Source: Hormiphora californensis (lineage: Eukaryota; Animalia; Ctenophora). Taken from it: a stretch of DNA of 64,000 bases. A program made the position numbers and the translations under genes. The stretch is from assembly GCA_020137815.1 (NCBI GenBank), contig CM035351.1:1736001-1800000 (forward strand), written 5' to 3'. Positions 1,515 through 59,234 of this stretch are shown in pieces. How positions within the stretch are numbered: the stretch's first letter is position 1; every line of letters begins with the position of its first letter. The notes under the pieces are model-generated. The model was given only the letters and a program-made list of their open reading frames with translations, ran no database searches and had not been told where the DNA came from.

Positions 1515-4500
1515 CATACAAAGTTGCTCTTTACTACGAACTCGTACTGTGGGGCACCCCTGTCTATCCACTTTCCATGTCTCCAGGGTCTCTGGGGGTC
1601 GTAAATTATCTGGACGTAGGAGGCACCGGGCTTCATTCGGTCCGTCTGCAAATGAGAAAAAGAAGGTAGTGAAGGATGAAAAACGTTAACGCATTATTTA
1701 GTGATCCCGGCATGATCTGAGCTACTCTGTGTAGCACCCCCTGATCATGTATCACCTGACACCCTAGCCCATCTAGATCACGTACCATGTTATCAGGTTC
1801 AGGTCTAGATACCCTCCCAAACTTCCTCAGATACCAGTTGGTAAAGGGTGTTATGGTGTTATCACCTAGGCAACGATACACCCCATCCTCATCGACATCA
1901 ACCACACCCAACCACGAGTTACCTCTGTAATGGGGGAGGGGGTTATAGAACATGGAGAGAGGGACTAATAAACAGGGATCATTGTGAACTAGAGAGTCAG
2001 ATAATGGTAGTGTTATAGTGGAGGCTGGAAGAAAGAGAAAAGCTTCCTTCCCAAAACATTTCTATCAACTACCATCTCTTACCGTATGGTATCTAGGATG
2101 CGGGCTTGTTGAATTGAGTCTTTAGGGCACGCCAGATTGCCCCCTCTAGAGGAACAGAAGTTCTGGGCGTCACCGTGTGTCAGATGCAGGTAGTGATAGG
2201 AATAACGGACCAGACCTAGATGAGGGAGAGGGGTTTAGTGACATGCAGGATATAACGGTAAAGGATTGGGCGGGGGGTACGTCACCTTTTTTTTTGCCCA
2301 CATTTGCCCACATTTGCCCACATGGGCAAATTGAAATCTCAAAAAACAGGTATAATGTGGGCAAAGTGGGCAAAAAGTGGGCAAAAATATTATAAGCATC
2401 AAAACTTTACCAGAAAACCCTCTGTGACAAATGTTTTTCACCTCCAATGTCTTCCAAGAGGTCCCCTCTATCGATTCCAACCGATAATTAATGTACTTTC
2501 TTATGACTTAGGGTTGATAAGGCTCCATGTCCGACTGGACAAAAGTGGGCAAAAAATTTTGGCAAAATTAGGCAAAGGCCAGTGATTTTTCGTCATTTTG
2601 GGGCTATTTAGGGAACTGATACATAACAAAGGTTTTCCACTTGCATTGTACTCCAATGGGGTCCCAGGAAAACCAGAAAATTTTTCCACTCCAACCATGT
2701 GAGAAACGTGCCTAAAATGACCAATTTTCCTAATTTTGCCAACATATTTTGCCCATTTTCCCCAGTTGGATATGGAGCCTTATCAACCCTGAGCAAATAA
2801 ATTATCGGTTGGAATCGATAGGGGGGACCTCTAGGAGGACATTGGTGGTGAAAAACCTTTGTCACAGACGATTAACTGGTTGATAGCATATATTTTTTAT
2901 GGATTTAAATTTTTTGCCTACTTTTGCCTACTTTTGCCTACTTTTGCCTACTTTTGCCCACTTTTGCCCACTTTTGCCCATGTGGGCAAATTCAAAATTT
3001 AAGAATAATGTGGGCAGTGGGCAAAAAAAAGGTGACGTACCCCCCGATTGGGCACGTCGCGCCCCTAATGTTCGCGCGCCCTGCAGGGCGATCCCCTCAC
3101 ACACGGGGCAAGGTAAAGAAGTATCCTCAGCACTAAATACCGTCTAGAGTTGTTGAAGGGAGGGAAACAGACAGTCATGATGATTGAGTGAAGAACACCT
3201 GTAAACAATTTCAACCTAACCCAACATATCATGGACTGGGGAGTACTGCAGCTGCACCCCCCCCCCCTTCTCCCTCTTGTACTAAAAAGACTGGATTTCT
3301 GTACAGGGGGATTGTGGGCTACAGCTGCTGTCTGTATTTATCTTGATTTCTTCTCACAACTTTTCACACTATGCTATGACTTCTGTTTTTTCTTCTCCTT
3401 TATACATTTGCTCTTAATTGCTCACTCACTCTTTCATCACTACATATAATCTATCTCTGCTCTCACACAATCTCTATCTCTGTGTCTATCGCATGAGTTT
3501 TCACGTGTTCTCACTATCAAGTTTCAACAACTCACTGTGAAGCACTCTTCAGCTATCTAACTCACTTACATAACATCATTTCTACGAGATTCGGCTTTAC
3601 TTTGTAGGATGATATTTGTTGTCTCTCAATAATTGTACTGGATTACTGGTCTTTGTAGGATCTCGAATCTACTTCATATTTGGGACGGGACAATATAACG
3701 TCAGACAATCAACCACTCCTACAGTTTGTTACCCCCTAGTATAATTATAGTGAACCTGAAAACTGGGCAGGTTTCCCGTCCCATGCCCTACCTGGCATGT
3801 ATACAGTATAGAGCAAGTACCTAATACACGTTTACCTTGTTGCCCATCCTTTGAATCATGCTCGTGTGCCAGTCCGATAGATCGTAGTTTGTTTTCTTGG
3901 TGCGTTCTGAACAGCGGCACATAGACTCCCTCTATAACAATACGGGGTCATGTGTTAGATCATTAGAGAATTACTTAGTTACATTTGCTAAAGGCTGAAT
4001 GTTATTGTTGAGTAACCAACTTAACAAGAACATTCCCAATTAATTTTACAATTTACACAACTTTATCAATATACCTGAGTTGATGTTCCCATAATCGCTC
4101 TGTGCTAGAGCTGCTGTATTGTCCCTTGGTAGGGGGCACTGACACAGGACAGGGAGGGAGAAATACCCGTGAAGAGGTCTGACCCGGCCACTTGATCTGC
4201 TGTACCCAGCATAGAGGGGACCTGGAGGGGGAGATCACTATTTAGCTGGGGGGGGGGGGTAATCATGGTGACAAATGGTGACATATGGTGACATATGGTG
4301 ACAAATGGTGATGGTTACATGGCCAAAATTTTGAGATGAGTCACCATTTGTCACCATTCTCTCTGGAGCTTCCTACAGGCATAATATGATGTTATGGGAC
4401 ATAATATGATGTTATGGGACACTGGGGGACACTTCTACCAAGCTTCAAGTCGATTGGATGTAATTAAGGGGTCACAGGTGGTTAATTGCGCTTTTATGTG

Positions 4501-7256
4501 TTGTGCGAGGGAGGTACACCCTCAACGTGACTTTTGGGAAGTTAATTTTAGCGGTCCAAAACACTACTAGTCGATCCAAAATGGCCATGTTAACAACTTA
4601 TGAACAAATATATCGGTCTAAGGAAATTAATAAATTTCATCAAATTTTTAAAGAAATTCTGTCGAAATCCGCATATTTCGTCCAAAAATGGTGACAAATG
4701 GAGAAAAATGGTGACAAATGGTGATGATGACATACCCTAAATGGTCAGATGAGTCACCATTTGTCACCATTTGTCACCATTTGTCACCATGATTACCCCC
4801 CTTTAGCTGCAGAGAATGTTTTGATATTTAGTAAAGATGGTAAATCTGCTGCTGCCTGATATCAGATATGGCCGTGTGTTTGAGCTCTAACAATGTAGAG
4901 AACTGGACAAACAATGATCGTGGGGTGGATAACAATGGGCGGATAGCTTGTCAACCTCTTCAACAACACAAGGGGGGTGTTTTATGTGTGTCTTGAGGTT
5001 TTAAGGAAGAGGTCTCTATCTCCCTCCCTCTTTTTCTCTCTCTCTCCCTCTCTCTTTTTCTCTCTCTCTCTCCCTCTCTCTTTTTCTATCTTTTCCTCTC
5101 TCTTTTTCTATCTTTTCCTCTCTCCTCTATTTCTCTTTCCCCTCATTTTTTCTGTATATTTTTCTCTTTCCCTGTTTACATCTCTTCCTATCCAGTTATA
5201 CATATCTGTTTCCCTATTTGTTTATTTTAGGCCCCTCTAACTTCTGATCCCTGGCCTTTCTGAACCGGGACTCTGTTGTTACTCAACATGGCCTCTGTGT
5301 AGCGTGAAGTACGTGAAGAACCAGTCATGTAGAACATGGCAGGGGCTACATACACAGTACACACTTTGCTTTGAACAACTAGCTGCATGTGTAACATTGA
5401 CACACCTGTGTGTGTGTTGTGTGTTGATTCGATAACATGATTTGTGTTTTTCTTTGAACTACCTGCTAAACACACACACACACACACATGTACAACTATT
5501 TGACCATGAGCTGCTGCTGCTCAGTCAAATACTTTGTTTTGCTCGGCCCTCTCTCACTGCGCTAGATACAGTTCATTCTAAAGTTATGTTATCAGTATAT
5601 CTCTTACCTTGGGTCGGGAAGGTGACACTTTTCTCCCACCGTATATTCCTAGCCGCTGAACCGTCCGCCCACAGCCATTCTCCTTGGGCTACTGCATCCC
5701 TTCCATCTACCCAGAACTGAAAGTGAAAAACTGTATAAACATAAATTGTATATGCAGAGAATAGGGCCCTTTAGGGCCGAAATCCGAATCTCGAAGCGCA
5801 TCATCTATGTACGCAGTCAGAGAATAGGGTCGAAGTGCACCATCTTGTAAAGTTATGTACCTAGTAAAACTTAGTTTTATTCGAAGGGCTTGTTCGAATG
5901 ATTAACACACCCTGGCTAGTCCAGGATATGCGAATTGTACATGATCATTGTGCTAACCTAATTAGGGTGAGGAACATTTTACAAAACTTTTCTCTATCAG
6001 ATTCTCTCTTCCTATCCTATAGCTATCATCAAACCCCAGTCAGACACTACTCTGAGTTGTCGAAATACCCAACAAGACATAATATCAGCAACTTTGTATA
6101 TATTCAGAATGTCTGCAACATATTCAGTTTATTTTCAACAAGTTTCCCCGAAAAAAAATATATGGACACTCTGGCTTTTTTTGAAAGTTTTAGTGTTACC
6201 GGTGGTGTGAAATTATCCTTATCTGACACGGCTGACCCTAATTTCTATCCTAATTTTTGATCATCTTGCCCTAAATTTTTCCCGTTGACCCCCCCCCCCC
6301 AGCTAGTTCTCATATGTTTCTTGTTGTCGAAACTAGTTTCTTGGTCAGTATTACTGCATTTGATCCTCTCTATCTCCGCACCCCGACGAGGGTTAGAACA
6401 TAACAAAAACTTAACAAGAGTGATGACATGCATGAGCGACATACGCTTCGTTTTGTTACACTTCAGCGGCTTTTGACCTTAGTTTCTAATGTACACTTTA
6501 TATAATGTACAGTACATTTTACAAAGTACATTATGTACTTATTGTATACACCAGTACACGTAATTCTCTCTCGCACACTGCTTCTTGAATCTTGATGTAG
6601 CTTGACATGCACGATTTGAAATCCTACTTTCGCAGCTAGATGGGACTTTCCACTTTCATTCTTCTTGAGCTTGTTGTATAACTGTGTAACTTACTATTTA
6701 GTAGGTGTTTGTTATGACATGATCTGAGGAAGCTGTAAAGCCCTAACTAAAGGAACTACACCGGAGAATTATACTAATCAGCTAACATAGAACCAGATAA
6801 AAAGAGTAATGATTGGATCAGGGATGGCCAGGAGGCTTCTTACAACAATGCTGTCAGGTATACGTCATAATAAAACAATGATAGCGCTGGCATAGCATAT
6901 AACATATGAATACTGAGATAAGTCTCTCAATTCTCAATCGTTCTATTCATTCAATAGTGCTGTTCAATCAATCACTTCATATGCTACACATTACACTTGT
7001 CACTTATTATCCTCTCTTGTAAATATTAATACTCTTGTAAATACTTCAATATTTCAATATTCGCGTGACTGAATATTATAAAGTTGAATCGTAACTGCGC
7101 ATCCAATCAATCAGTCCCTTTTGCTCACGCGCCTCAAGTAGGTAACTACAACGATCATACCACATAACCAGCAGAAGATTTCGAGTGATTTGACAAACTC
7201 GTAAAATCCAACCGTGACTTTTCTTGATCTTCATCTTTGATGTCTTTATTCGTCAT

Positions 7257-16335: not shown

Positions 16336-20234
<3,899 letters not shown>

Positions 20235-28180: not shown

Positions 28181-28672
28181 TTAGGTACAACCCTCTGTAG
28201 AACACTCCGTGGCTTCCGGGTGATAGATCCTATCCACACTAACATACAACTTATCCTTTCCATTCACTGTCTCCCAGTGATACCTGACCCGCCCTAGGGC
28301 ATCAGCTTTCAGTACGTTTCTCCCATCTCTTGATCTCTAGGTAGACGTTGTCTCCCGCTAGGATTGTTTCTGCGCTTCGGATCCTAGCAACCACCCGGCC
28401 AGGACTAACACCATCTCCTACAAAGGATATTGAAGTGTTATTAAGTGTAATCAGAAATGATCAATGGAGAATGGTCAGATTACAAAATGAGATGACGAGA
28501 AACGGATAACAGTTAAAAAAAGGAGGGGGGTAGTTATGAACTAACCATCTTCGTAGACGCGTCCCCAGAACTTGTCTTTGTTGATAGGCCGTCTCCGGTT
28601 ATAGAACTCACTGGTAAACAGACCTCTAATACAGGTAGTTCGAGCCAAGCTTGGAACTCTTGTCAGTGACAT
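28181..28672 (-). CDS. MRPL27: Mitochondrial ribosomal protein bL27m-like; two exons; apparent +1 frameshift near 28330-28340
   Basis: Arg-rich presequence-like start; GDGVSPGRVVARIRSAETILAGDNVY, then in the +1 frame SRDGRNVLKADALGRVRY...KLYVSV, resembling bL27. Confidence 0.6.
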
Positions 28673-28838
28673 GGATAGGGCTACGGAAGGTGAAACTGTT
28701 CGAGATGGAGTAGGGTAGGCTTGATAATCAATGAAGAGTCAGGAGACAGAAAACGTTAGTTGTTGTTGGATGGTCAAAAGTTTAAAAGTTCAATAAATTA
28801 GATAACAAAAAAAAGCTGCAACTGTCTCTAAAACTTCT

Positions 28839-31800
28839 CTAACCATCTAATTCATTGCTTTCTTTTAACGATTTAACCAACTGTTTCTTTGTTTTTCGCT
28901 TCTCTCGTTTTAACTTCTGTTCCTTCTTCTTTGACCAACTCTCCATCACCTTTCCCCTACCCTCTCTTTTCACCTCCTTAGGCCCGTCCTGCAGTCTTTT
29001 CAACCTTATTTTCTCCCTAACTTTATCCTTGTATGGGATCCCAGAGGTATCGACTGTCCCACATTTCACCTCAACGCCCCTTCCCTTCAGTTCGGGCACC
29101 TTTGGGACTTCCAATAGGGCATATGACTCAACAACCCCTCCCACATCGAGCTCCTTTAGGATGAAGATCGCCTTAGAGCTGTGTTTAGTGTAAAACTGGA
29201 TAAAAGAAACAAATGCCCTGACTGATTTCTCAAACAAATCTCGATCATGCATCAGCATCTTTCGAACTTTTACAGTAGCTGGGAGGATTTCAAATGCTGG
29301 GGTGTACTCCTGAAAACGGAAGAAAGCAACATTAATCTGTGAAGAAAAGAATTACATAATAATAATTTAGCTTTGAAAACCAAACTTTAATAAAAATTCG
29401 AACCTCTAAGGGAGCTTTCTGACTGATCTTTAAATAATCCACATAAGCGAGTTCAGAAGGTGCCAGGAACAGAAGTGCCCTTCCCTCCGTCCCCATTCGG
29501 GCTGTTCTGCCACAACTGAGAAAAATCGTAATTCTATATGGTACTAAGTAAATCGATTTAAAAAAGGACATGTCATTAAATATATATATCCAATGCAATG
29601 TACCATTAGAAGTTTCAATATGTTTACCGGTGAACGAATTCCTCAGGTTCCCGGGGAGGATCAAACTGTAACACCCACTCCACGTTAGGAACATCAACAC
29701 CCCTTGCCAGTACACTGGTACACAACAATATACCCCTGTTCATTGTGCGGAACTGGGAGAACAGATCATCCCTGTTCTTCTTCATTTTACCGTGGAGTAG
29801 GAGAACCTGTGGTGGAACAGTACCGTTCACGGCGTGCCTGGTGAAATTTTAACACGACCTAGCATGCGACGGGAAACCACCACTTGTACGTGGTAGCTGA
29901 GGGTCTACAGAATGGCGCTACGGTGCGGGATAAAAAAATCCATTCCCTAAAATCTTGTTTTTTACTTTTATTTGATTTGGGTCAAAATTGGCTATATTAA
30001 ACGTGGTCCCGAAAAATCCATAATGACTTAGCACACGAAATATGTCACCCCTACCTATTTTTGCACGTAGAATCGATTGCCGTTGAAGTCGAATCACTAA
30101 AATGACTGTAAAATGGTCAAAAGTTGATTTTTTACCATTTTTTGGAGGTTTTTGGCCCCTAAACCATTGAAAACGTTGAGATAGGAATTTGAAACTAGTG
30201 CCAATCGTTAAAATGGTCATTTTTCTACCAAGAACCAAGTTTTCGTGTATATCCGATTTATGGTTAGATTTGGGCAAATTGTTGAAATCTGCCAACTAGG
30301 AGAACCGTAACTTGATTTTCTTGTTTTTTGGATTTTGGCATTTTTGACAAACTTCTGATTGAAATGGTCAATCGGGACCATGCTTAAGTTGTTTATGGGA
30401 CAATTTTCGACTAAAATCCAAGATTTCATACCAATCCAATAACAGATCGTTGATTTATAGAAAATTTAAGTAGGCAAAACGGTCAAAATAAGCAAGAAAA
30501 GTTGTTATTTTGACCGTTTTGCCTACTTAAATTTTCTATAAATCAACGATCTGTTATTGGATTGGTATGAAATCTTGGATTTTAGTCGAAAATTGTCCCA
30601 TAAACAACTTAAGCATGGTCCCGATTGACCATTTCAATCAGAAGTTTGTCAAAAATGCCAAAATCCAAAAAACAAGAAAATCAAGTTACGGTTCTCCTAG
30701 TTGGCAGATTTCAACAATTTGCCCAAATCTAACCATAAATCGGATATACACGAAAACTTGGTTCTTGGTAGAAAAATGACCATTTTAACGATTGGCACTA
30801 GTTTCAAATTCCTATCTCAACGTTTTCAATGGTTTAGGGGCCAAAAACCTCCAAAAAATGGTAAAAAATCAACTTTTGACCATTTTAAAGTCATTTTAGT
30901 GATTCGACTTCAACGGCAATCGATTCTACGTGCAAAAATAGGTAGGGGTGACATATTTCGTGTGCTAAGTCATTATGGATTTTTCGGGACCACGTTTAAT
31001 ATAGCCAATTTTGACCCAAATCAAATAAAAGTAAAAAACAAGATTTTAGGGAATGGATTTTTTTATCCCGCACCGTAGCGCCATTCTGTAGACCCTCAGC
31101 TACCACGTACAAGTGGTGGTTTCCCGTCGCATGCTAGGTCGTGTTAAAATTTCACCAGGCACGCCGTGCGTTAGTTTATTATCAGTTGAGCTTGCTAATC
31201 AGTGAATCAACCTATTGTATTCATCATATTATGATAAAATAAGTGAAGACTGAAGGGCATACTTGAATTCAGGGCATTATTCCCTACCTTGTTTTGCTAG
31301 ACCCTGGCCTGTCTCACCCTACCTTGGTGTTTTTGAAGATTGTAGTGATGAGTTTCCCAAGGTACTCCACTGCCGCACACGTACTGACAAAAACCATCTT
31401 CTTACCATCCTTCTCGTGCCGTAAAAAGGAGAGGAGGGTAGAGAGCTTCATTTCTTCTTGACAACAGATGTAGTAGTTCCGTAGTGACAGAGGTGTCTTC
31501 TGGATCTGGGGTGGTCAATGGCCGTGAGAATTATGGTGATATAGATTTTAAGAAGTATAAAGACAAACCTAACTCACTCATAAAAAGGGCATGAACATCA
31601 TGTACCTGTCTTGCTGCATTAAATTTCTGTTTCACAGTCACTCTGTAAGGGTTCCTGAGACCTGCCCTGATCAGATCTTCTACTTGATCTGTCTGGGTTG
31701 CACTAAATAGTCCCGTACGTCTCTGAAAGAGAGGAAGATCATTTATTAAATTCAAATACAGGCTCTGTTGCTCAATACACAATACTGATTACTGGATAGC

Positions 31801-32544
31801 GTAACACAGAGTAAACGCTGCACAGTGAACACTGAACAGTCACATGAAAAAGAGGAACCCCCCACTAACATGTTTGTTTGTTTGTCAACCAACCTGTTTA
31901 GGGAGTGAGGTGAGTATAGAAGTTAGTTGTTTCTGGAAGCCCAGTCTCAGCAACATATCAGCCTCATCCAGCACCAACATCTCCAACTGTTTGAGATAGG
32001 GTGCCAACCAGGGTAGTGCCTGATCGAGTCTCCCTGGTGTGGCTATCAGGATATTACCACCCAATGTCTTGAACTGTTTCTGATCCTCCTCTGGTTTTGT
32101 GTGACCCCCAACAAAGGTAGCAATTGACATGTCAGGTATTTTGTTGGTGAACTTCTTGACAACCTGTTCCGTCTGGAGAGCTAACTCTTGGGTGGGTGAG
32201 ATGATCAGGCCGATAACATCGGTCTTCCTTGGTGGTGTGGAGAGGGTGACGAATTTGTTCAGCATTGGCACGACAAACGCTAGAGTCTTTCCTGAAAGGA
32301 GAAAAATTTAATGATACGTGAACAAATAGATGTCATCAGTCATCACCACTACCAAATACCGGATGCTGCAGTGAAAACAGAATCTCTAAATACCTGAGCC
32401 AGTGACCGCTTCAACTGCGACATCTTTACAAGTGAGAAACAGAGGAATACAGTGCTCCTGGACTGGTGTCAATGAGGTGAACTGGAAATCTTCTGTAATC
32501 GTATCAAATACCTGTTTTCGTATTGACAAATCATTCCATTTCAT
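28839..32544 (-). CDS. DDX55: DEAD-box RNA helicase DDX55/Spb4; seven exons
   Basis: [26 protein letters not shown]|[66 protein letters not shown], Lys-rich tail. Confidence 0.95.
29828..31168. mobile_element. Near-perfect 1341-bp palindromic DNA element, CAC...GTG termini, 4-bp TSD (cgtt); Chapaev/CMC-like non-autonomous element in a DDX55 intron
   Basis: 664-bp inverted arms, 13-nt loop at 30492-30504, one mismatch noticed; TSD at 29824-29827 and 31169-31172. Confidence 0.92.
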
Positions 32545-32627
32545 CGCTGTTTTCTAAATCGAAAGAATTAGATTATTTCGATTCGCCTGATAAAATAGGG
32601 GGAAAGACAAACCAATCTATAATAAGA

Positions 32628-32840
32628 TTATTTTTCCAAGTCCCGACACTGGTCACTGTCGATTGAACAGTGTTCAGTCATAGTGGGAACTGTACAATAA
32701 GGTAAGATATATAGCAGGGGCAGTGGACAACGTGGGCCTTTGCTGTAATGGGATTCTGGGATCGAGGGGGGGGTATAATTCGAATAAAAAGCCCAATTTT
32801 TAAAATAAATTAACATATGTATCTATAAAACCAACATTTT
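32628..32840 (-). pseudogene. Relic duplicate of the BTB gene 5' end (acceptor, ATG and upstream flank)
   Basis: 32671-32840 resembles 34831-35011 (tgttcagtcatagt..actgtacaataag..aggggcagtg..ggggggt.taattcga.taaaa..cccaatttttaaaata.attaacata); the frame MTEH... stops after 17 codons. Confidence 0.6.
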
Positions 32841-33161
32841 TTAAAACCCACATTTATAAAACCAACTGAATTGTCAGCTATGAAAGAAAAGTCTAGAACT
32901 TAAAAAGTTTTAAAAAATTATGTAGGGGAGTCCGTGAAATTTTTCTTCACTTTCTATAGCAACCCTGGGCTTTGTCAGGGTGTCGTCAACAAATAGTTCG
33001 GTGGAATGGATCTGCAGTTCTGGTGGTGATGCTTTGGGAGGGTTTGAAAAGGCATCTAAGGCGAAACTCCACTAACCTCGGGGATGATTAAAGATTATTG
33101 CAGTAGGAAGGATCTCAAATCCTCATACATGGCGCAATCCAGAAGGAAGTGAGTCTCGTCT

Positions 33162-34841
33162 TTAGTAATGGGGTTGAAGTGTGGTAGCTCCATCATAGAT
33201 TCTAGAACGTACAGATCGGATGTGTTCCAGGAAGGACACATCCATTCCTCCTCCATTTTTCATCGAATCAAGTTCAACTGTCGGCCAGAGAATAGAAAAG
33301 TTAGTTTTATCATAACTACGAAGTTTCCAGACACCGTGTAATTTATCGAGAGAAGGAGTTAGAGTATTTAGGTTGCTACAGACAGCAATATGACTGCCGA
33401 TCGGCAGCTCAGAAACGTAGAAATATATATGTTGTAGAAAATCAGGGTCTTGGTGAAAGTGAACATCTGTTTGAGCCTCTAGAATTTCCTGATCGTGGAC
33501 CAAAGTTAATGTAATGACGGGCCATGACTGTTCATCTTCCAAAGTTACAAAAACCTCAACAGCCACTTTACATCTTTTATCGGACCCTTTTGGGTTATCA
33601 TTACAGTAGCTAGGTCCAACAACTCCATGCAGATCGAGAAACAGGCGCTTAGAATGGTGAAAAGGAAAACTCTGCTTAAAAATATTGAAATCAGCATGAA
33701 CTAATTTACATAGACTGCTCTGCTTTTTCACCATACAATTCCACATAATATTCTTAACTTCACAATTGTCGTAACGCAATAAAGGGTAACCCCACAAATG
33801 GTTTCCAGATGACCGTTTATCCATTGCTGCTGTTATTGCATTAACAACGTCCGGTGATAATTCGAAACCAAAAACGTCACAGCAGTAGTCCAGAGAGGAT
33901 GAAAACTGGGTGCATGACCTAATTCTCGGTTCATTATCAAGTACTTTGATGGCATCCAACATTGTTTTACATTCTCCAAGGGCGGGTATCACAATAGGGT
34001 ACACAATAGTGTTCTGGGTATTTGAAGTATCTGAGCTAGTACTACTAATGTCAGAAGGAGAAGCAGTGACCCTTGCAAACACATCAAAAAGAGACAGAAG
34101 GTCTTCCTTAGAGAGAGACCGTTGAACAGTAGTCACTAGTTGCAGGTATAAAGCTTGATCAGCTTGGAAGCAGAGAGTCATGGATGGGAGAGTTAGGAAC
34201 CTCTTTTCAACATCAGTTAGTTTCACAGGATGGGGTTTACCTTCCAAATTACCAATAAGCCACTTGTACAGAAGTATCGCCTCCCCCTCCCCTGCCAGGG
34301 ATAAAGACAGGTGGGTATACCAGAAGTCCTGATTGTTGGGATCACGGGATAGGAAGTCTTGGATCAGTGCCAATGGGAGAGATTCCCCCAGTTTGGAGCA
34401 CAGAGCATCTTGGAGGTGCCTGTTGTTTCTCTCCTTTAGAATGTAGGCTGCTTCTTCAAATAGATACCACGCCATCTCTACAGAGTGTGAAGTGCTGCAG
34501 AGGTCGGTGTAGTACTTCAGACACTCTTCTACCATCCATTGCACCTGGAACACTGCACTCAGTTTGTTGACCTCCCGGAATGTACCCCTGGTGAGATCCA
34601 CAGATCCAGAGTAACACGCCTCAATGAAACACACCACTGAACAGTGGGCGAACTCCTCTACATCCAGTTCCTTGAGCTGTTCCTCTCGAACCAGGTCACG
34701 AATTACTGGGCTGTTCATCGCTAGAGGAAAGGAACTGGAGGACACAACTTCTCCCCCGCTACACACTAGCTGCAGATCGTTCAGACCCCTCAACTCCAGG
34801 TAGTGCCTTCCAAAGTTCATGGGCACTGTCTGTTCAGTCAT
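33162..34841 (-). CDS. Intronless BTB/POZ-domain protein
   Basis: ~559-aa ORF; NDLQLVCSGGEVVSSSSFPLAMNSPVIRDL...FIEACYSGSVDL...LSAVFQVQWMVEEC is a BTB pattern. Confidence 0.8.
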   Translation of the reverse strand: MTEQTVPMNFGRHYLELRGLNDLQLVCSGGEVVSSSSFPLAMNSPVIRDLVREEQLKELDVEEFAHCSVVCFIEACYSGSVDLTRGTFREVNKLSAVFQVQWMVEECLKYYTDLCSTSHSVEMAWYLFEEAAYILKERNNRHLQDALCSKLGESLPLALIQDFLSRDPNNQDFWYTHLSLSLAGEGEAILLYKWLIGNLEGKPHPVKLTDVEKRFLTLPSMTLCFQADQALYLQLVTTVQRSLSKEDLLSLFDVFARVTASPSDISSTSSDTSNTQNTIVYPIVIPALGECKTMLDAIKVLDNEPRIRSCTQFSSSLDYCCDVFGFELSPDVVNAITAAMDKRSSGNHLWGYPLLRYDNCEVKNIMWNCMVKKQSSLCKLVHADFNIFKQSFPFHHSKRLFLDLHGVVGPSYCNDNPKGSDKRCKVAVEVFVTLEDEQSWPVITLTLVHDQEILEAQTDVHFHQDPDFLQHIYFYVSELPIGSHIAVCSNLNTLTPSLDKLHGVWKLRSYDKTNFSILWPTVELDSMKNGGGMDVSFLEHIRSVRSRIYDGATTLQPHY

Positions 34842-35108
34842 AGTACTGTACAATAAGACGTGGGTTAGATATAGAACAGGGGCAGTGAATGTTATACGAT
34901 AGCCTTTAAATTGTAAGGGAATTCCGCCTTCTGCGATTGGGGGGGGGGTTTAATTCGACTAAAACCCCCAATTTTTAAAATACATTAACATACATTTATA
35001 AAATCAACATTCGGGGGTGGGGGGGTGCAGCCCCAAAAAAAATCAAACTTTTTCCGAAACCCAGGGTATGGTTGGTTTTTTGTTGGTTTTTTTTGGTTGA
35101 AATTTTTT

Positions 35109-37118
35109 CGATTTTTTTTGGTCGGTTTTGATTTATTTGATCAAACATCAAAAACATCAAAAAAAAATCAAAAACGATAAAAAAAATCAAAAAAGATCAA
35201 AAAAGATCAAAAGTTTTTTTAAAATCAGCCACATATTACCTGTAACAGGTAGACCTAGATAGACCGGTATCGTACCAACAGGACAAATAAAATTGATTGT
35301 GAAACTTGTTCAAAAGTCAAAAGTTAAAACGAACTTGTCAAAAACAGGTATTTTAACAAGTACAGGTGTCTGGTGTTTCAGTCCTCCTCCTCCCCTTCCA
35401 GTTTTCACCTTAGCTACAGGAAGCCAGAAGTGCGCTGTGTAGCCAAAAAGGAAGACCTTGACCAACGATACAGTCCCCTACGCTGCGGGCTTTTGAATAG
35501 AGCTTCAACGGAAAACCGAGAGAGACAGGGTTTAAGTTTAAGTTTAAGTCGCTGGGCCTTCGTACCTGTGCAGTGTGCGCCCAGGGGCTTTGGGCGGCAG
35601 CCCGTGTCTGGGGGCAGGGGAGTGGGGGTGAAACCCCGCTACAAGCAGGGTATGGGGTTGTAAGCCCCGATGGGGGTCGAGGAAGCGAAAATCTCTTCCA
35701 AAATTAAGTTTTTTTTTCAAAAATGAAAAAAGTGTCTTGTTTCCTTTTTTCTATTTACTGCACGAGATAATAATAAGACTTTGAAACAATTGGCTGAGAA
35801 GAAGGCGACTAAAACAGGATATTCATACGATCAGTGTATCCGGTACCTGAGGCTAAGGTTGTCATTTGCCATGGTCCGCTCCGTCACCATTTCCATCAGG
35901 GGGCACCGCGGACGACTGAGGGCAGAAGGCAGCAGCGGTCGGGATGACAGTATCTACCAAATAGACTAAATCTTTTATTTATATAATTTATTGACCCCGT
36001 TTGTTTAATTTATTATTGACATTGTAAGTGTGTGTACCACTATTTATATTCAAGGCCAATATCGGCCGACCCCCCCCAGTTTTATTTACTGCACGAGCGC
36101 TGAATTCGCGCGTCGATTTTTTTTGGTCGGTTTTGATTTATTTGATCAAACATCAAAAACATCAAAAAAAAATCAAAAACGATAAAAAAAATCAAAAAAG
36201 ATCAAAAAAGATCAAAAGTTTTTTTAAAATCAGCCACATATTACCTGTAACAGGTAGACCTAGATAGACCGGTATCGTACCAACAGGACAAATAAAATTG
36301 ATTGTGAAACTTGTTCAAAAGTCAAAAGTTAAAACGAACTTGTCAAAAACAGGTATTTTAACAAGTACAGGTGTCTGGTGTTTCAGTCCTCCTCCTCCCC
36401 TTCCAGTTTTCACCTTAGCTACAGGAAGCCAGAAGTGCGCTGTGTAGCCAAAAAGGAAGACCTTGACCAACGATACAGTCCCCTACGCTGCGGGCTTTTG
36501 AATAGAGCTTCAACGGAAAACCGAGAGAGACAGGGTTTAAGTTTAAGTTTAAGTCGCTGGGCCTTCGTACCTGTGCAGTGTGCGCCCAGGGGCTTTGGGC
36601 GGCAGCCCGTGTCTGGGGGCAGGGGAGTGGGGGTGAAACCCCGCTACAAGCAGGGTATGGGGTTGTAAGCCCCGATGGGGGTCGAGGAAGCGAAAATCTC
36701 TTCCAAAATTAAGTTTTTTTTTCAAAAATGAAAAAAGTGTCTTGTTTCCTTTTTTCTATTTACTGCACGAGATAATAATAAGACTTTGAAACAATTGGCT
36801 GAGAAGAAGGCGACTAAAACAGGATATTCATACGATCAGTGTATCCGGTACCTGAGGCTAAGGTTGTCATTTGCCATGGTCCGCTCCGTCACCATTTCCA
36901 TCAGGGGGCACCGCGGACGACTGAGGGCAGAAGGCAGCAGCGGTCGGGATGACAGTATCTACCAAATAGACTAAATCTTTTATTTATATAATTTATTGAC
37001 CCCGTTTGTTTAATTTATTATTGACATTGTAAGTGTGTGTACCACTATTTATATTCAAGGCCAATATCGGCCGACCCCCCCCAGTTTTATTTACTGCACG
37101 AGCGCTGAATTCGCGCGT
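35109..37118. repeat. Apparently exact 1005-bp tandem duplication (35109-36113, 36114-37118)
   Basis: Identical ORFs offset by 1005 (35373/36378, 35781/36786). Confidence 0.9.
35767..36082 (+). mobile_element. Heavily 5'-truncated RLE-type (CRE-like) non-LTR retrotransposon 3' end with 15-bp TSD; second copy at 36772-37087
   Basis: KQLAEKKATKTGYSYDQCIRYLRLRLSFAMVRSVTISIRGHRG is homologous to the C-terminus of the 48749-49891 ORF; TSD tatttactgcacgag at 35752-35766 and 36083-36097. Confidence 0.8.
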
Positions 37119-37819
37119 CTCACTTGCAGTGGTTTCACAAATTAATTTAATTCGCGCGTTACAACCAAATCAAGATGTGTTGACCCAACACCGCGCCGCG
37201 CGGCGAAGAGAGAGAAGAAGGAAAATTTGAAAAATTCTAAAAACTGAAAACACTAAAAATACAAATTTGGGAAGTTTGACCGGCCCGGCCGCTTGAAAAG
37301 CGCTGCCTTATCCCGCGCTGCTATCGGGGGCCAGCAACGTTTGCCAACCCGGCCGCCGACGATGTCCCGTTCCACGACGCCCTGTGCATCAGGGAGTAGG
37401 GACTAAGCTGGCAGTTATGCATCGGGAGCCAGGATTGTGTGGCTAGAATACAAGCAGGAGCCAGCTGCCAGGGCGTTATAGCCTATAGGAGACGGAGGCC
37501 GTAGCCCCCGTGAAGCTTGATCGAATAATTTATTGTACTAAAATCTAAATGTACAGAGGAGTGAGGACTGCAGTGTTCGATGAAGCTGGTGGCTTCCACA
37601 TGTTATTACTAGGTAGATTATTCTCTGGATTTGAGTGGAGGTTTTCAGCATACGCCCTAAAAGTATTTTCCCAATCCGGGTCCAATGACGGTCGTGTGGC
37701 TCTAACCAACCAACCAACCAACCGCACAAGGCTGGTTGAGAGCTCTGGCGTTTTTATCATGAATTTGTCTCTGTTTTTGCGTTTATCTCTTAACTATGAC
37801 TCTATTTATTTAGCTGAAT

Positions 37820-48641: not shown

Positions 48642-50667
48642 AGGGATCCCTAAAAAAGTTCAGTATTTTTTTTTGTGAAAGCCGGGGTTGCCGGTCCAAT
48701 TAAAACGGAATAAAAATCAAGGTAATCAGTACATATAAGATTAATAAATTAGATTAGATTAATGTCATTGGTTAAACTACAAAACCGAGTCCATTTATTC
48801 CCCCTGAACCCCCTGATGGAAATGAGTACAGTTTTTAGGAGTGAGAAAGAAAGTCGTAGTCTGATATAGCGCACGCTATCATTATAGGTATGCCCGGTTT
48901 TGTCGGCGAGACGGTTCGCAAGCTTCTTGTAAAATACCTCGGCTCTTGGACCCATGACCCCAGTTGTTGAGAAAACCAGTGGAGTGAAAGTTGCTTTCTC
49001 CACCTCAACTACTCGTGCATCATAATGAAGTACTTTTTCTCGCTCATGCCGCTTGATGGTGTTTTTGAGTGGCTGAGAAATGTTAGTAGGTGCCAGGCTA
49101 TTGAAGACTCGGATGTCAGTGAATACCATATCGAGGTCACTCCACACATTCCGGGCAGAAACATCCAAACGGGCACTGTTAACAGTGATAGCAGATTTGA
49201 ATTGGAATGTTTCACCAGTTATGGGTAGGAGCTGCGGCTCAATACGGACGTCTTTGCAGCCGGCCTCCACGAGGATGTTAGCTGTGAGGTCTCGGATGTT
49301 ATTATGCCGTAAATACACGTAACCTCCCACGGCACATGAAAGGCAGTGTTCGAGAGTGTTCGATTTTCCACACGCACAAACAGATGGTATGCCCTCAAAG
49401 GGTAAGTTGTAGCGTAGTAGCAGGGCATCTCTGAATTGCTGTTTATTCAGGACAAATCCGTGTTCCACCAAGGGCAGAGCAGTTAACCAGCTAGAGGCCC
49501 CTCTAGACGAGATCTCCTCGAATAATCGCTGGTCAAAGGTTGAAAGTAGTGCCCGGGTTTGTTCTTTTTCGGCATTCTGTGTAGATCGTTTTACTTTCAG
49601 GACTGCAGCCTTAGCTCCTTTCGCTTCCCACAGGAGGAGTTCCGAACGTTCTTCACTGATTAGGAGTTTTTGTTCCAGAATGAGATTTTTAAGAGGCTGG
49701 GTCGCCTGAGAAGAGTTTATGAACTCAGCAGCCGCCTGTTCTGTAGGAATCAAAATTCCGAGCCCACCATCACGTGCAGGGAGAGAGAAGAGAGCTCTGA
49801 TGTTGGGAGGGGTGTTTGGACCTATCAGGGCTGAGGGCAGGGATAAAAGAATCCTTGATACAGGTCTCCAAGGGCGTAAAGAGTTCTGCAATCCCTGCAG
49901 TTGTTCTCATTAGAAATAACCACTTTTTAGATAAACCAAAAAAGTTCAGTATTTACACAGAGTTTACACAGTCTTTACTGGGCGCGATTATAATCTGGGT
50001 GCCTTGCAGCGAGTTTACAGGTGCGCGCTGCCAAAAAAGTACACCTAAAACCACTTAGACCGACTTTTTTCAAACGGCTATAGCCGCGTAACCACATGGC
50101 CGATTTGAGTAAACTAAACGGTATCTGATAGAGAATCGATAGCCCTAACCAATAACCCCAAACCAAACCCTAACCCGACCCTAACAACAGCCCTAACCCG
50201 TCGCGCGCGCCAAAATCGATGAATTGTTAGCAATGAAAGGCACCCAGATTTTAACGTTTTCCGTCTTTACTCAGTCGTTAAAGTCCATTTTTATTCAACT
50301 GTTCACCCTCCAACTCGTGCGCGTGCGATATTTTAATTTACGCTGCGCGCGCTACACGTTAACATGTGATAGACGCGCAAAACAATTCCGCGCACGACTT
50401 TGGGGGGTGAACAGTTGAAAAAAAATGGAGTATACACCCAGAGCGCCCGCGCCGCTCTGGGTGTAACGACTGCGTCTTTCGCACTCGATTTGCAGCGTTT
50501 TCGGAAACTTTTTTCGCCGCAGCGCTCAATTTTGTCAATTGTGCAGCACACAATCCAATATTTTCTAGGAAAAAGCCACTGTGCGCAGCACGCGCCGCTC
50601 TGGGTGTAACGACTGAGTAAAGACTGTGTAAACTCTGTGTAAATACTGAACTTTTTTAGGGATCCCT
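48642..50667. mobile_element. MITE with ~50-bp TIRs (agggatccctaaaaaagttcagtatttacacagagtttacacagtctttact), left TIR interrupted by a retrotransposon; internal degenerate (ccctaa)n at ~50143-50199
   Basis: Right TIR 50616-50667 is the reverse complement of 48642-48668 joined to 49955-49979. Confidence 0.8.
48669..49937 (-). mobile_element. 5'-truncated RLE-type (CRE-like) non-LTR retrotransposon: end of RT, CCHC knuckle, RLE endonuclease, poly(A) tail, 17-bp TSD
   Basis: ORF 48749-49891: PARDGGLGI, CACG...HCLSC, RHNNIRD, RLDV, DIRV, EREK...Y, FTPLVFSTTG; TSD aaaaaagttcagtattt at 48652-48668 and 49938-49954. Confidence 0.88.

Positions 50668-55595: not shown

Positions 55596-59234
<3,639 letters not shown>

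Follow-up and report, generated by a model that had tools for sequence, protein, structure and literature searches.

Can an intron still be spliced when a hairpin of more than a kilobase lies between its branch point and its acceptor? This question is raised by intron 4 of a helicase gene of the ctenophore Hormiphora californensis, which lies in a window of 64,000 nucleotides (assembly GCA_020137815.1, contig CM035351.1, positions 1,736,001 to 1,800,000). The coordinates of the relevant features are summarized in Table 1. The protein encoded by the host gene shares 67-69% identity with its two closest relatives and 47-49% with named DDX55 proteins. A PDB search with exon 2 retrieved DEAD-box helicases but left the subfamily unsettled, and the name DDX55 was taken from the comparison with the named proteins. 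DDX55/SPB4 is an essential ribosome-assembly helicase in yeast. The exon 4/5 junction is collinear in all four relatives compared, and a neighbouring gene encodes a product with 79% identity to a protein that clusters with named Bolinopsis and Mnemiopsis members.

Table 1. Features of the DDX55 locus and of the inserted element (window coordinates)
Feature	Position	Strand	Remarks
Host gene, DEAD-box helicase DDX55/SPB4	28839..32544	-	seven exons, 536 aa
DDX55 exons	32544-32394, 32291-31894, 31722-31606, 31505-31323, 29806-29628, 29515-29404, 29309-28839	-	from the reading frame
DDX55 intron 4	29807..31322	-	1516 nt with element; GT at 31322, AG ending at 29807
Palindromic non-coding element	29828..31168	none	1341 bp, CAC...GTG ends, 37% GC
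5' arm	30505..31168	-	664 nt; first transcribed in the DDX55 pre-mRNA
Loop	30492..30504	none	13 nt; bridged by an 87-nt X1 contig
3' arm	29828..30491	-	664 nt; transcribed second; A>G / T>C clusters in family RNA contigs
Target-site duplication, copy 1 (AACG)	31169..31172	-	contains the predicted branch A
Target-site duplication, copy 2 (AACG)	29824..29827	-	direct repeat beside the element
Predicted original branch site ACTAAC	31170..31175	-	branch A 31171; largely single-stranded in the predicted fold; stem starts 2 nt further on
Rival branch site GTGAAC	29825..29830	-	branch A 29826 (-20); distance fits, motif poor; GTG predicted to pair at the base of the stem
Rival branch site TTTCAC	29841..29846	-	branch A 29842 (-36); fits the motif, lies buried within the 3' arm
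Cryptic acceptor CAG in the 3' arm	29838..29840	-	use adds 31 nt, stop at codon 300

An earlier note on this DNA had described a palindrome with 664-bp arms, a 13-nt loop, CAC...GTG ends and a 4-bp target-site duplication. All of these features were confirmed by the coordinates and by a direct-repeat test. The two arms differ at a single position in 664 nt (30108 vs. 30888) and form by far the longest inverted repeat of the window, the runner-up being 154 nt long at 89% identity. When flanking direct repeats of 2-10 nt were tested, only a length of 4 fitted (AACG, minus strand, 31172-31169 and 29827-29824). The longest stop-free frame within the element comprises 125 aa, a search of Rfam gave no match and the 64-kb window holds no second copy. 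With its non-coding sequence, its long inverted arms and its target-site duplication, the element is likely a non-autonomous palindromic (foldback/MITE-like) DNA transposon, and likely a young member of a high-copy family. As far as its identity alone is concerned, we are confident that we deal with a transposon hairpin.

To compare the element with other copies, we used contigs from five of the 22 listed runs (X1, X5, X7, X17, and X19) and the window stretches 30460-33200 and 28600-30540; the other runs (X2-X4, X6, X8-X16, X18, X20-X22) were left out of this comparison. An 87-nt contig of X1 spans the loop with more than 31 nt on each side, and its depth (1428.9) is about 24-fold that of the flanking gene (58.4). 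Among the contigs listed for X5, 12 cover position 30506, which adjoins the loop. Hence, the centre of the palindrome, which the earlier note had named as a possible assembly artefact, is bridged by contigs of two samples. The summed X1 depth over the arm was 1e4-1e5, and the family may comprise tens to hundreds of copies, depth being a rough guide here and not a copy number. Foreign flanks joined to the element end were also observed, as mixed flanks before 29828 in X5 and X19 and as a 417-nt flank in X7. The CAC/GTG terminus recurs in a diverged X7 copy, which has a loose end at 31139.

A diverged subfamily is represented over 30308-30479 by a 294-nt X1 contig (depth 1175.6) with 20 differences and another internal order, and it also carries a variant sub-terminal sequence at 29873/31123. 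The loose ends at 31123/29873 were considered as a shorter-ended variant of the element, but this idea was dropped, since the X1 letters before 29873 share TTTTAACACGA with the end of the window copy and fit the diverged subfamily. At 30900/30096 and 31039/29957, the two arms of the window copy have letters in common that are absent or rare in the X1, X5, and X7 copies. Such letters may stem from concerted evolution by arm-to-arm copying or have been introduced by polishing. At 30506, most family copies carry a C and their arms end 2 nt earlier; the letter of the window lengthens the pairing by 2 nt.

Several other repeats were observed in the window. A perfect tandem duplication with a 1005-bp period (35108-37119) is either a recent duplication or an assembly artefact. 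Inverted ends of 24 bp, a candidate direct repeat of 6 bp and nested inverted sub-repeats mark a 776-bp element (2271-3046), and another element of 821 bp (56191-57011) combines G-rich inverted ends of 20 bp with a direct repeat of 8 bp. Two inverted-repeat elements made of short sub-repeats (17914-19286 and 4254-4801) have 154-bp arms at 89% and 49-bp arms at 96%. A stretch of 2026 bp (48642-50667) with 27-bp inverted ends and an inner 42-bp inverted pair (49938/50657) includes a 385-aa frame (48749-49906, minus strand), which by eye resembles the C-terminal part of a reverse transcriptase. Directly upstream of DDX55, a single 595-aa frame (33162-34949, minus strand) starts with a BTB-like sequence, again judged by eye. 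The depth of X1 and X5 rises near 33128-33200, which suggests a multigene family for this frame.

The insertion is not fixed. A 1679-nt X1 contig matches the window at 28732-29809 and at 31169-31728 with no element in between and thus represents an element-free allele. A 377-nt X5 contig ceases to follow the window at 29809, and the remaining 191 letters of this contig show no match to the arm. Because the X1 contig lacks the element and the X5 contig leaves exon 5 into non-arm letters, the insertion in intron 4 of DDX55 is polymorphic, with element-free alleles in both of these samples; the polymorphism that the earlier note had proposed to look for was therefore found. When the element and one copy of the repeat are removed from the window, the reconstructed empty site reads ACTAAC, the A of which lies 20 nt away from the acceptor G. 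This reconstruction differs from the only element-free allele of measurable length: in X1, 50 letters separate 29809 from 31169 instead of the 14 predicted (36 nt more), and ACTAAC is located at -56 of an intron of 198 nt. The 18-nt tail of the window (29810-29827, before the acceptor CAG) is not matched by the main allele of X1 or X5, and both samples diverge from the window at 29810. Among the contigs listed, no DNA or RNA contig with the junctions of this insertion was found.

The branch-site signal was evaluated with 26 other introns as controls, which were annotated by hand from the reading frames of four genes (window 24502-54645); two of them were confirmed by RNA and five belong to DDX55. 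These introns are short (90-361 nt) and have a clear, position-constrained TAAY branch motif. The branch consensus of human introns is loose, and the TAAY motif of the introns studied here is stronger. TAAY was found at -15 to -32 in 18 of the 26 introns, whereas shuffled sequences gave a mean of 6.1 and none of 1000 shuffles reached 18; in shifted windows, the motif occurred in 6, 10, and 9 introns. The longer motif CTAAY was present in nine introns vs. 1.8 in the shuffles. For scoring, we used a small model seeded with T at -2 and leave-one-out controls. The reconstructed ACTAAC scored 5.2, a value at least as high as that of 23 of the 26 controls. On the inserted allele, GTGAAC at -20 is the highest-scoring site between -13 and -32, and its score (-1.2) reached or exceeded that of only one control. 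TTTCAC at -36 scored 3.2, which is above the control median of 2.5. One control intron scores as low as the inserted allele, and thus weak branch sites can work.

Since ACTAAC scores high and the GTGAAC created at the new junction very low, the insertion likely displaced the branch site of this haplotype, as judged from the letters of the intron. The earlier note had claimed such a displacement with a branch point originally about 20 nt from the AG. The part concerning the motif stands, since ACTAAC, in contrast to the new junction, agrees with the branch motif found in this genome, but the original spacing is less secure, as the element-free X1 allele is 36 nt longer before the AG.

Would folding of the element bring the displaced site back into reach? 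With the element in place, the branch A is 1365 nt away from the acceptor G along the linear transcript, but 24 nt if the stem is skipped. In the fold predicted at 15 C, the terminal base pair is formed (0.98), ACUAACG is mostly unpaired (0.66-0.99), both rival branch sites are buried and the tail shows weak local pairing. The predicted folded form conceals all 49 internal AGs and leaves the native branch site and the tail free. Stems that bridge branch point and acceptor, shorten their distance and mask AGs have precedents in yeast (PMC3239191, PMC12350175, PMC9508853), and in the prediction the ctenophore hairpin does both. Human introns with distant branch points were found to be unstructured and are thought to be scanned (PMC3239191). 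However, the stem starts 2 nt past the branch A, and the roughly 21 stem-free nucleotides expected from yeast structures are not available. The yeast spliceosome is threaded by the 33 nt that precede the branch point and the 21 nt that follow it, and such intervals are depleted of stems (PMC12350175). The earlier suggestion that folding restores the spacing leaves aside that the stem begins inside the stretch threading the spliceosome.

Opening of the 19 terminal base pairs would cost a computed 44 kcal/mol at 37 C to 56 kcal/mol at 15 C and would also expose TTTCAC and the frameshifting CAG at 29838. When editing was mimicked by converting 30% of A to G, the stem end remained unchanged in the fold, but this proxy carries little weight since G-U overstates the stability of I-U. 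Nested self-splicing of the element was rejected because of weak splice signals: its CAC/GTG termini have no splice sites of their own, and the nearest internal GT dinucleotides (+7 and +14) are weak.

Splicing of the host intron was observed in RNA. In one X19 contig, exon 5 adjoins sequence that agrees with the end of exon 4. RNA joints were also seen in X17 and X19 for introns 5 and 6 of DDX55; the X17 RNA does not cover the exon 4/5 junction. However, the SNPs of the spliced X19 contig (29740, 29765, and 29768) match the element-free samples and not the inserted haplotype, and thus this contig is no test of the inserted allele. The junction 31323/29806 predicted in the earlier note consequently exists, but it was seen for an allele that appears to be element-free.

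RNA of the family itself differs from the DNA in one direction. In X19, 18 of the 27 listed changes are T>C, one of which (29740) is an exon SNP that is also present in DNA, and in X17 9 of the 10 listed changes are A>G. RNA differences were listed from a share of 70%, with further ones beyond those listed. After exclusion of the exon SNPs, 21 listed arm sites were retained, of which 13 are T>C changes of X19 and the other 8 are A>G changes of X17. Five listed arm changes of other types were left out of this set, and all of them also occur in DNA. At 15 of the 21 sites, neither DNA run contains the changed letter at summed depths of 1.6e4 to 1e6; at the remaining sites it was found at less than 1% (five sites) or at 3% (one site). 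A 5' G precedes none of the 21 sites but 17 of the 89 adenosines in the covered ranges (P=0.006), and a 3' G was not enriched (P=0.43). Avoidance of a 5' G by ADAR has been reported for all metazoans (PMC9989829). These data suggest that the RNA of the family likely carries an ADAR hyper-editing signature, the basis being three contigs of other copies with a depth of 2.2-6.8. The RNA runs stem from a single environmental study without matched DNA, and one X19 contig originates from another insertion site. The proposal that the arms are a substrate for ADAR is thus supported for other copies by clusters that run in one direction, are near-invariant in DNA and avoid a 5' G. As an alternative to the hairpin, the double strands of the edited RNA might arise from sense-antisense pairing, which is common in ctenophores (45% of sites; PMC9989829).

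With a probability of about 45%, we favor the reading that the element is absent from other alleles, forms an ADAR-edited hairpin and leaves the allele to be spliced from the upstream ACUAAC to the normal AG by way of the fold. The element would have been mobilized in trans by a CAC-ended DDE transposase (Chapaev/CMC-like). Its RNA would fold in this copy into the 664-bp hairpin, which is likely edited by ADAR, and the fold would bring the upstream ACUAAC to about 24 nt from the normal AG. U2 could then pair with the single-stranded ACUAAC, while U2AF would hold the tail of 21 nt, which the insertion left intact and which contains the pyrimidine tract and the AG. During activation, some 19 terminal base pairs would have to stay open, either because U2/SF3b loads ahead of the synthesis of the second arm about 1.3 kb further on, or through the action of a helicase. 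After activation, the terminal pairs may re-zip and conceal the 49 AGs of the element. Splicing of the inserted allele is likely less efficient than normal. A stronger statement appears doubtful to us, namely that transposons of this family, as perfect hairpins on the kilobase scale, escape the animal spliceosome purely through the folding of their RNA and can thus land and persist even inside the 3' splice signals of a genome with short introns. In that case, a branch point would act across the stem on an acceptor 1365 nt downstream, roughly threefold the largest spacing given for yeast in the cited papers, and ADAR would blunt the double-stranded RNA.

A serious, though improbable, alternative is that the insertion damages splicing, by retention of the intron or by use of a cryptic AG (e.g., 29838) followed by decay. 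The haplotype would then be a recent deleterious heterozygous allele of a very polymorphic species that is not rescued by the hairpin. The clash of the stem with the region downstream of the branch A speaks for such damage. The insertion is not the main allele in either of the two other samples, and the introns of this gene carry numerous allelic indels. Use of the CAG at 29838 would stop translation at codon 300, and AGs of the 5' arm with fair branch scores (e.g., 30926 and 30536) are transcribed before the second arm exists. On the other hand, the 536-aa open frame of the inserted haplotype is intact, although that of a young allele would be intact either way, and the concealment of the AGs with a free branch site and tail in the folded form argues against damage.

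A second serious, though unlikely, alternative is that the allele is correctly spliced from a new branch A, either in GUGAAC at -20 or in UUUCAC at -36, with the stem end open or unformed when U2 binds. The duplication keeps AAC at the original -20 together with the native tail, the score of TTTCAC exceeds the control median and human branch sites without a U at -2 are used (PMC5224494). However, GTGAAC lacks the T at -2 (weight 0.81 in the fitted model), and TGAAC occurs in the scanned range of none of the 26 controls. Moreover, both sites have their upstream side in the stem and need a wider opening than the upstream ACUAAC; opening of 48 bp costs 103-132 kcal/mol. The hairpin would also probably zip while the second arm is made. 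Finally, an erroneous placement or empty-site reconstruction (a collapsed repeat misjoined to the intron, or four nucleotides that agree by chance where the end of the intron was rearranged) is highly improbable: no independent contig among those listed carries these junctions, the element-free alleles differ right at 29810 and polishing of the palindrome could explain the letters shared by both arms, but loop and arms are present in short-read contigs of two samples, the arms are separated by one mismatch, and a mis-join is not expected to yield a target duplication that rebuilds the best branch motif of the genome at the usual distance.

Returning to the reading of a transposon hairpin bypassed by folding, we compared the element with known systems. 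Transposons of the Transib/RAG-like type have CAC ends and a 5-bp target-site duplication, and this assignment was rejected, since solely a 4-bp repeat fits here. Terminal inverted repeats with CAC/GTG ends and non-coding multi-copy derivatives are shared with Chapaev (CMC) elements, which have duplications of 3-4 bp (PMC4079192), but in our case the whole element is an inverted repeat. The 4-bp duplication was seen on both sides at one site only, and no transposase was found for the element, which has no long frame. Scans with the end motif yielded 21 stretches in metagenome contigs, two in viral contigs and none in prokaryote genomes, and the seven of these 23 that passed the blastn cut-off each matched just 19-21 nt of the arm. 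The element is therefore best called Chapaev-like, as its ends and its one duplication fit the hallmarks described in PMC4079192. Of the Chapaev-type assignment made in the earlier note, the termini stand and the duplication at this one site fits, but no transposase could be linked to it.

Palindromic repeats and long-inverted-repeat transposons of C. elegans, which are edited by ADAR (PMC7084138), are likewise non-coding, located in transcribed genes and predicted to form hairpins. They belong to another lineage and have other termini, and the available part of that source describes no insertion between branch site and acceptor. Hyper-editing of animal repeats, including those of Mnemiopsis (PMC9989829), likewise shows clustered A-to-I changes and 5' G avoidance. 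The stems of yeast introns (COF1 and UBC13, PMC3239191; "downstream stems", PMC12350175; branchpoint-distant exons of S. pombe, PMC9508853) also shorten the distance and mask AGs. Their spacings reach 166, 185, and 471 nt without homology to transposons in what these sources present, whereas the ctenophore case involves 1365 nt and a stem that is likely transposon-made. Unlike them, this stem is near-perfect, resides in an animal and begins 2 nt from the branch A. The symmetrical stwintrons of Hypoxylaceae (PMC8469720) likewise place a symmetrical repeated element in a splicing signal of the host intron; they are excised as introns themselves and have no target-site duplications (PMC8469720). 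Both stwintrons and introners were rejected as an explanation, since the ends have no GT/AG, the internal GTGAAA at +14 is weak and a CAG lies 10 nt from the end; unlike the stwintrons, the element also has a target-site duplication. Introners, too, are symmetrical repeated elements lodged in a splicing signal of the host intron and excised as the intron itself.

In the literature, the coverage of which was incomplete, neither this family nor a hairpin of transposon origin that spans the distance from a branch point to its acceptor was found to be described; the available portions of PMC12220107 and PMC5224494 contain nothing on such hairpins. We regard the element as a further example of a familiar type of palindromic transposon and its position, with a plausible 1.4-kb bypass, as the new part.

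The allele described here bears on the largest distance between branch point and acceptor that an animal spliceosome can bridge, and on whether a stem is jumped or has to be scanned. It is a natural extreme test, as SNPs tag the haplotype, the introns of this genome are short with a clear branch motif, and the large polymorphic family offers many further cases. If the allele is mis-spliced, the insertion would be an unremarkable deleterious one, although the element itself is curious. A working bypass would make full-length palindromy a route by which a non-coding transposon becomes tolerated in genes. The family also provides a concrete, likely substrate for ADAR in ctenophores.
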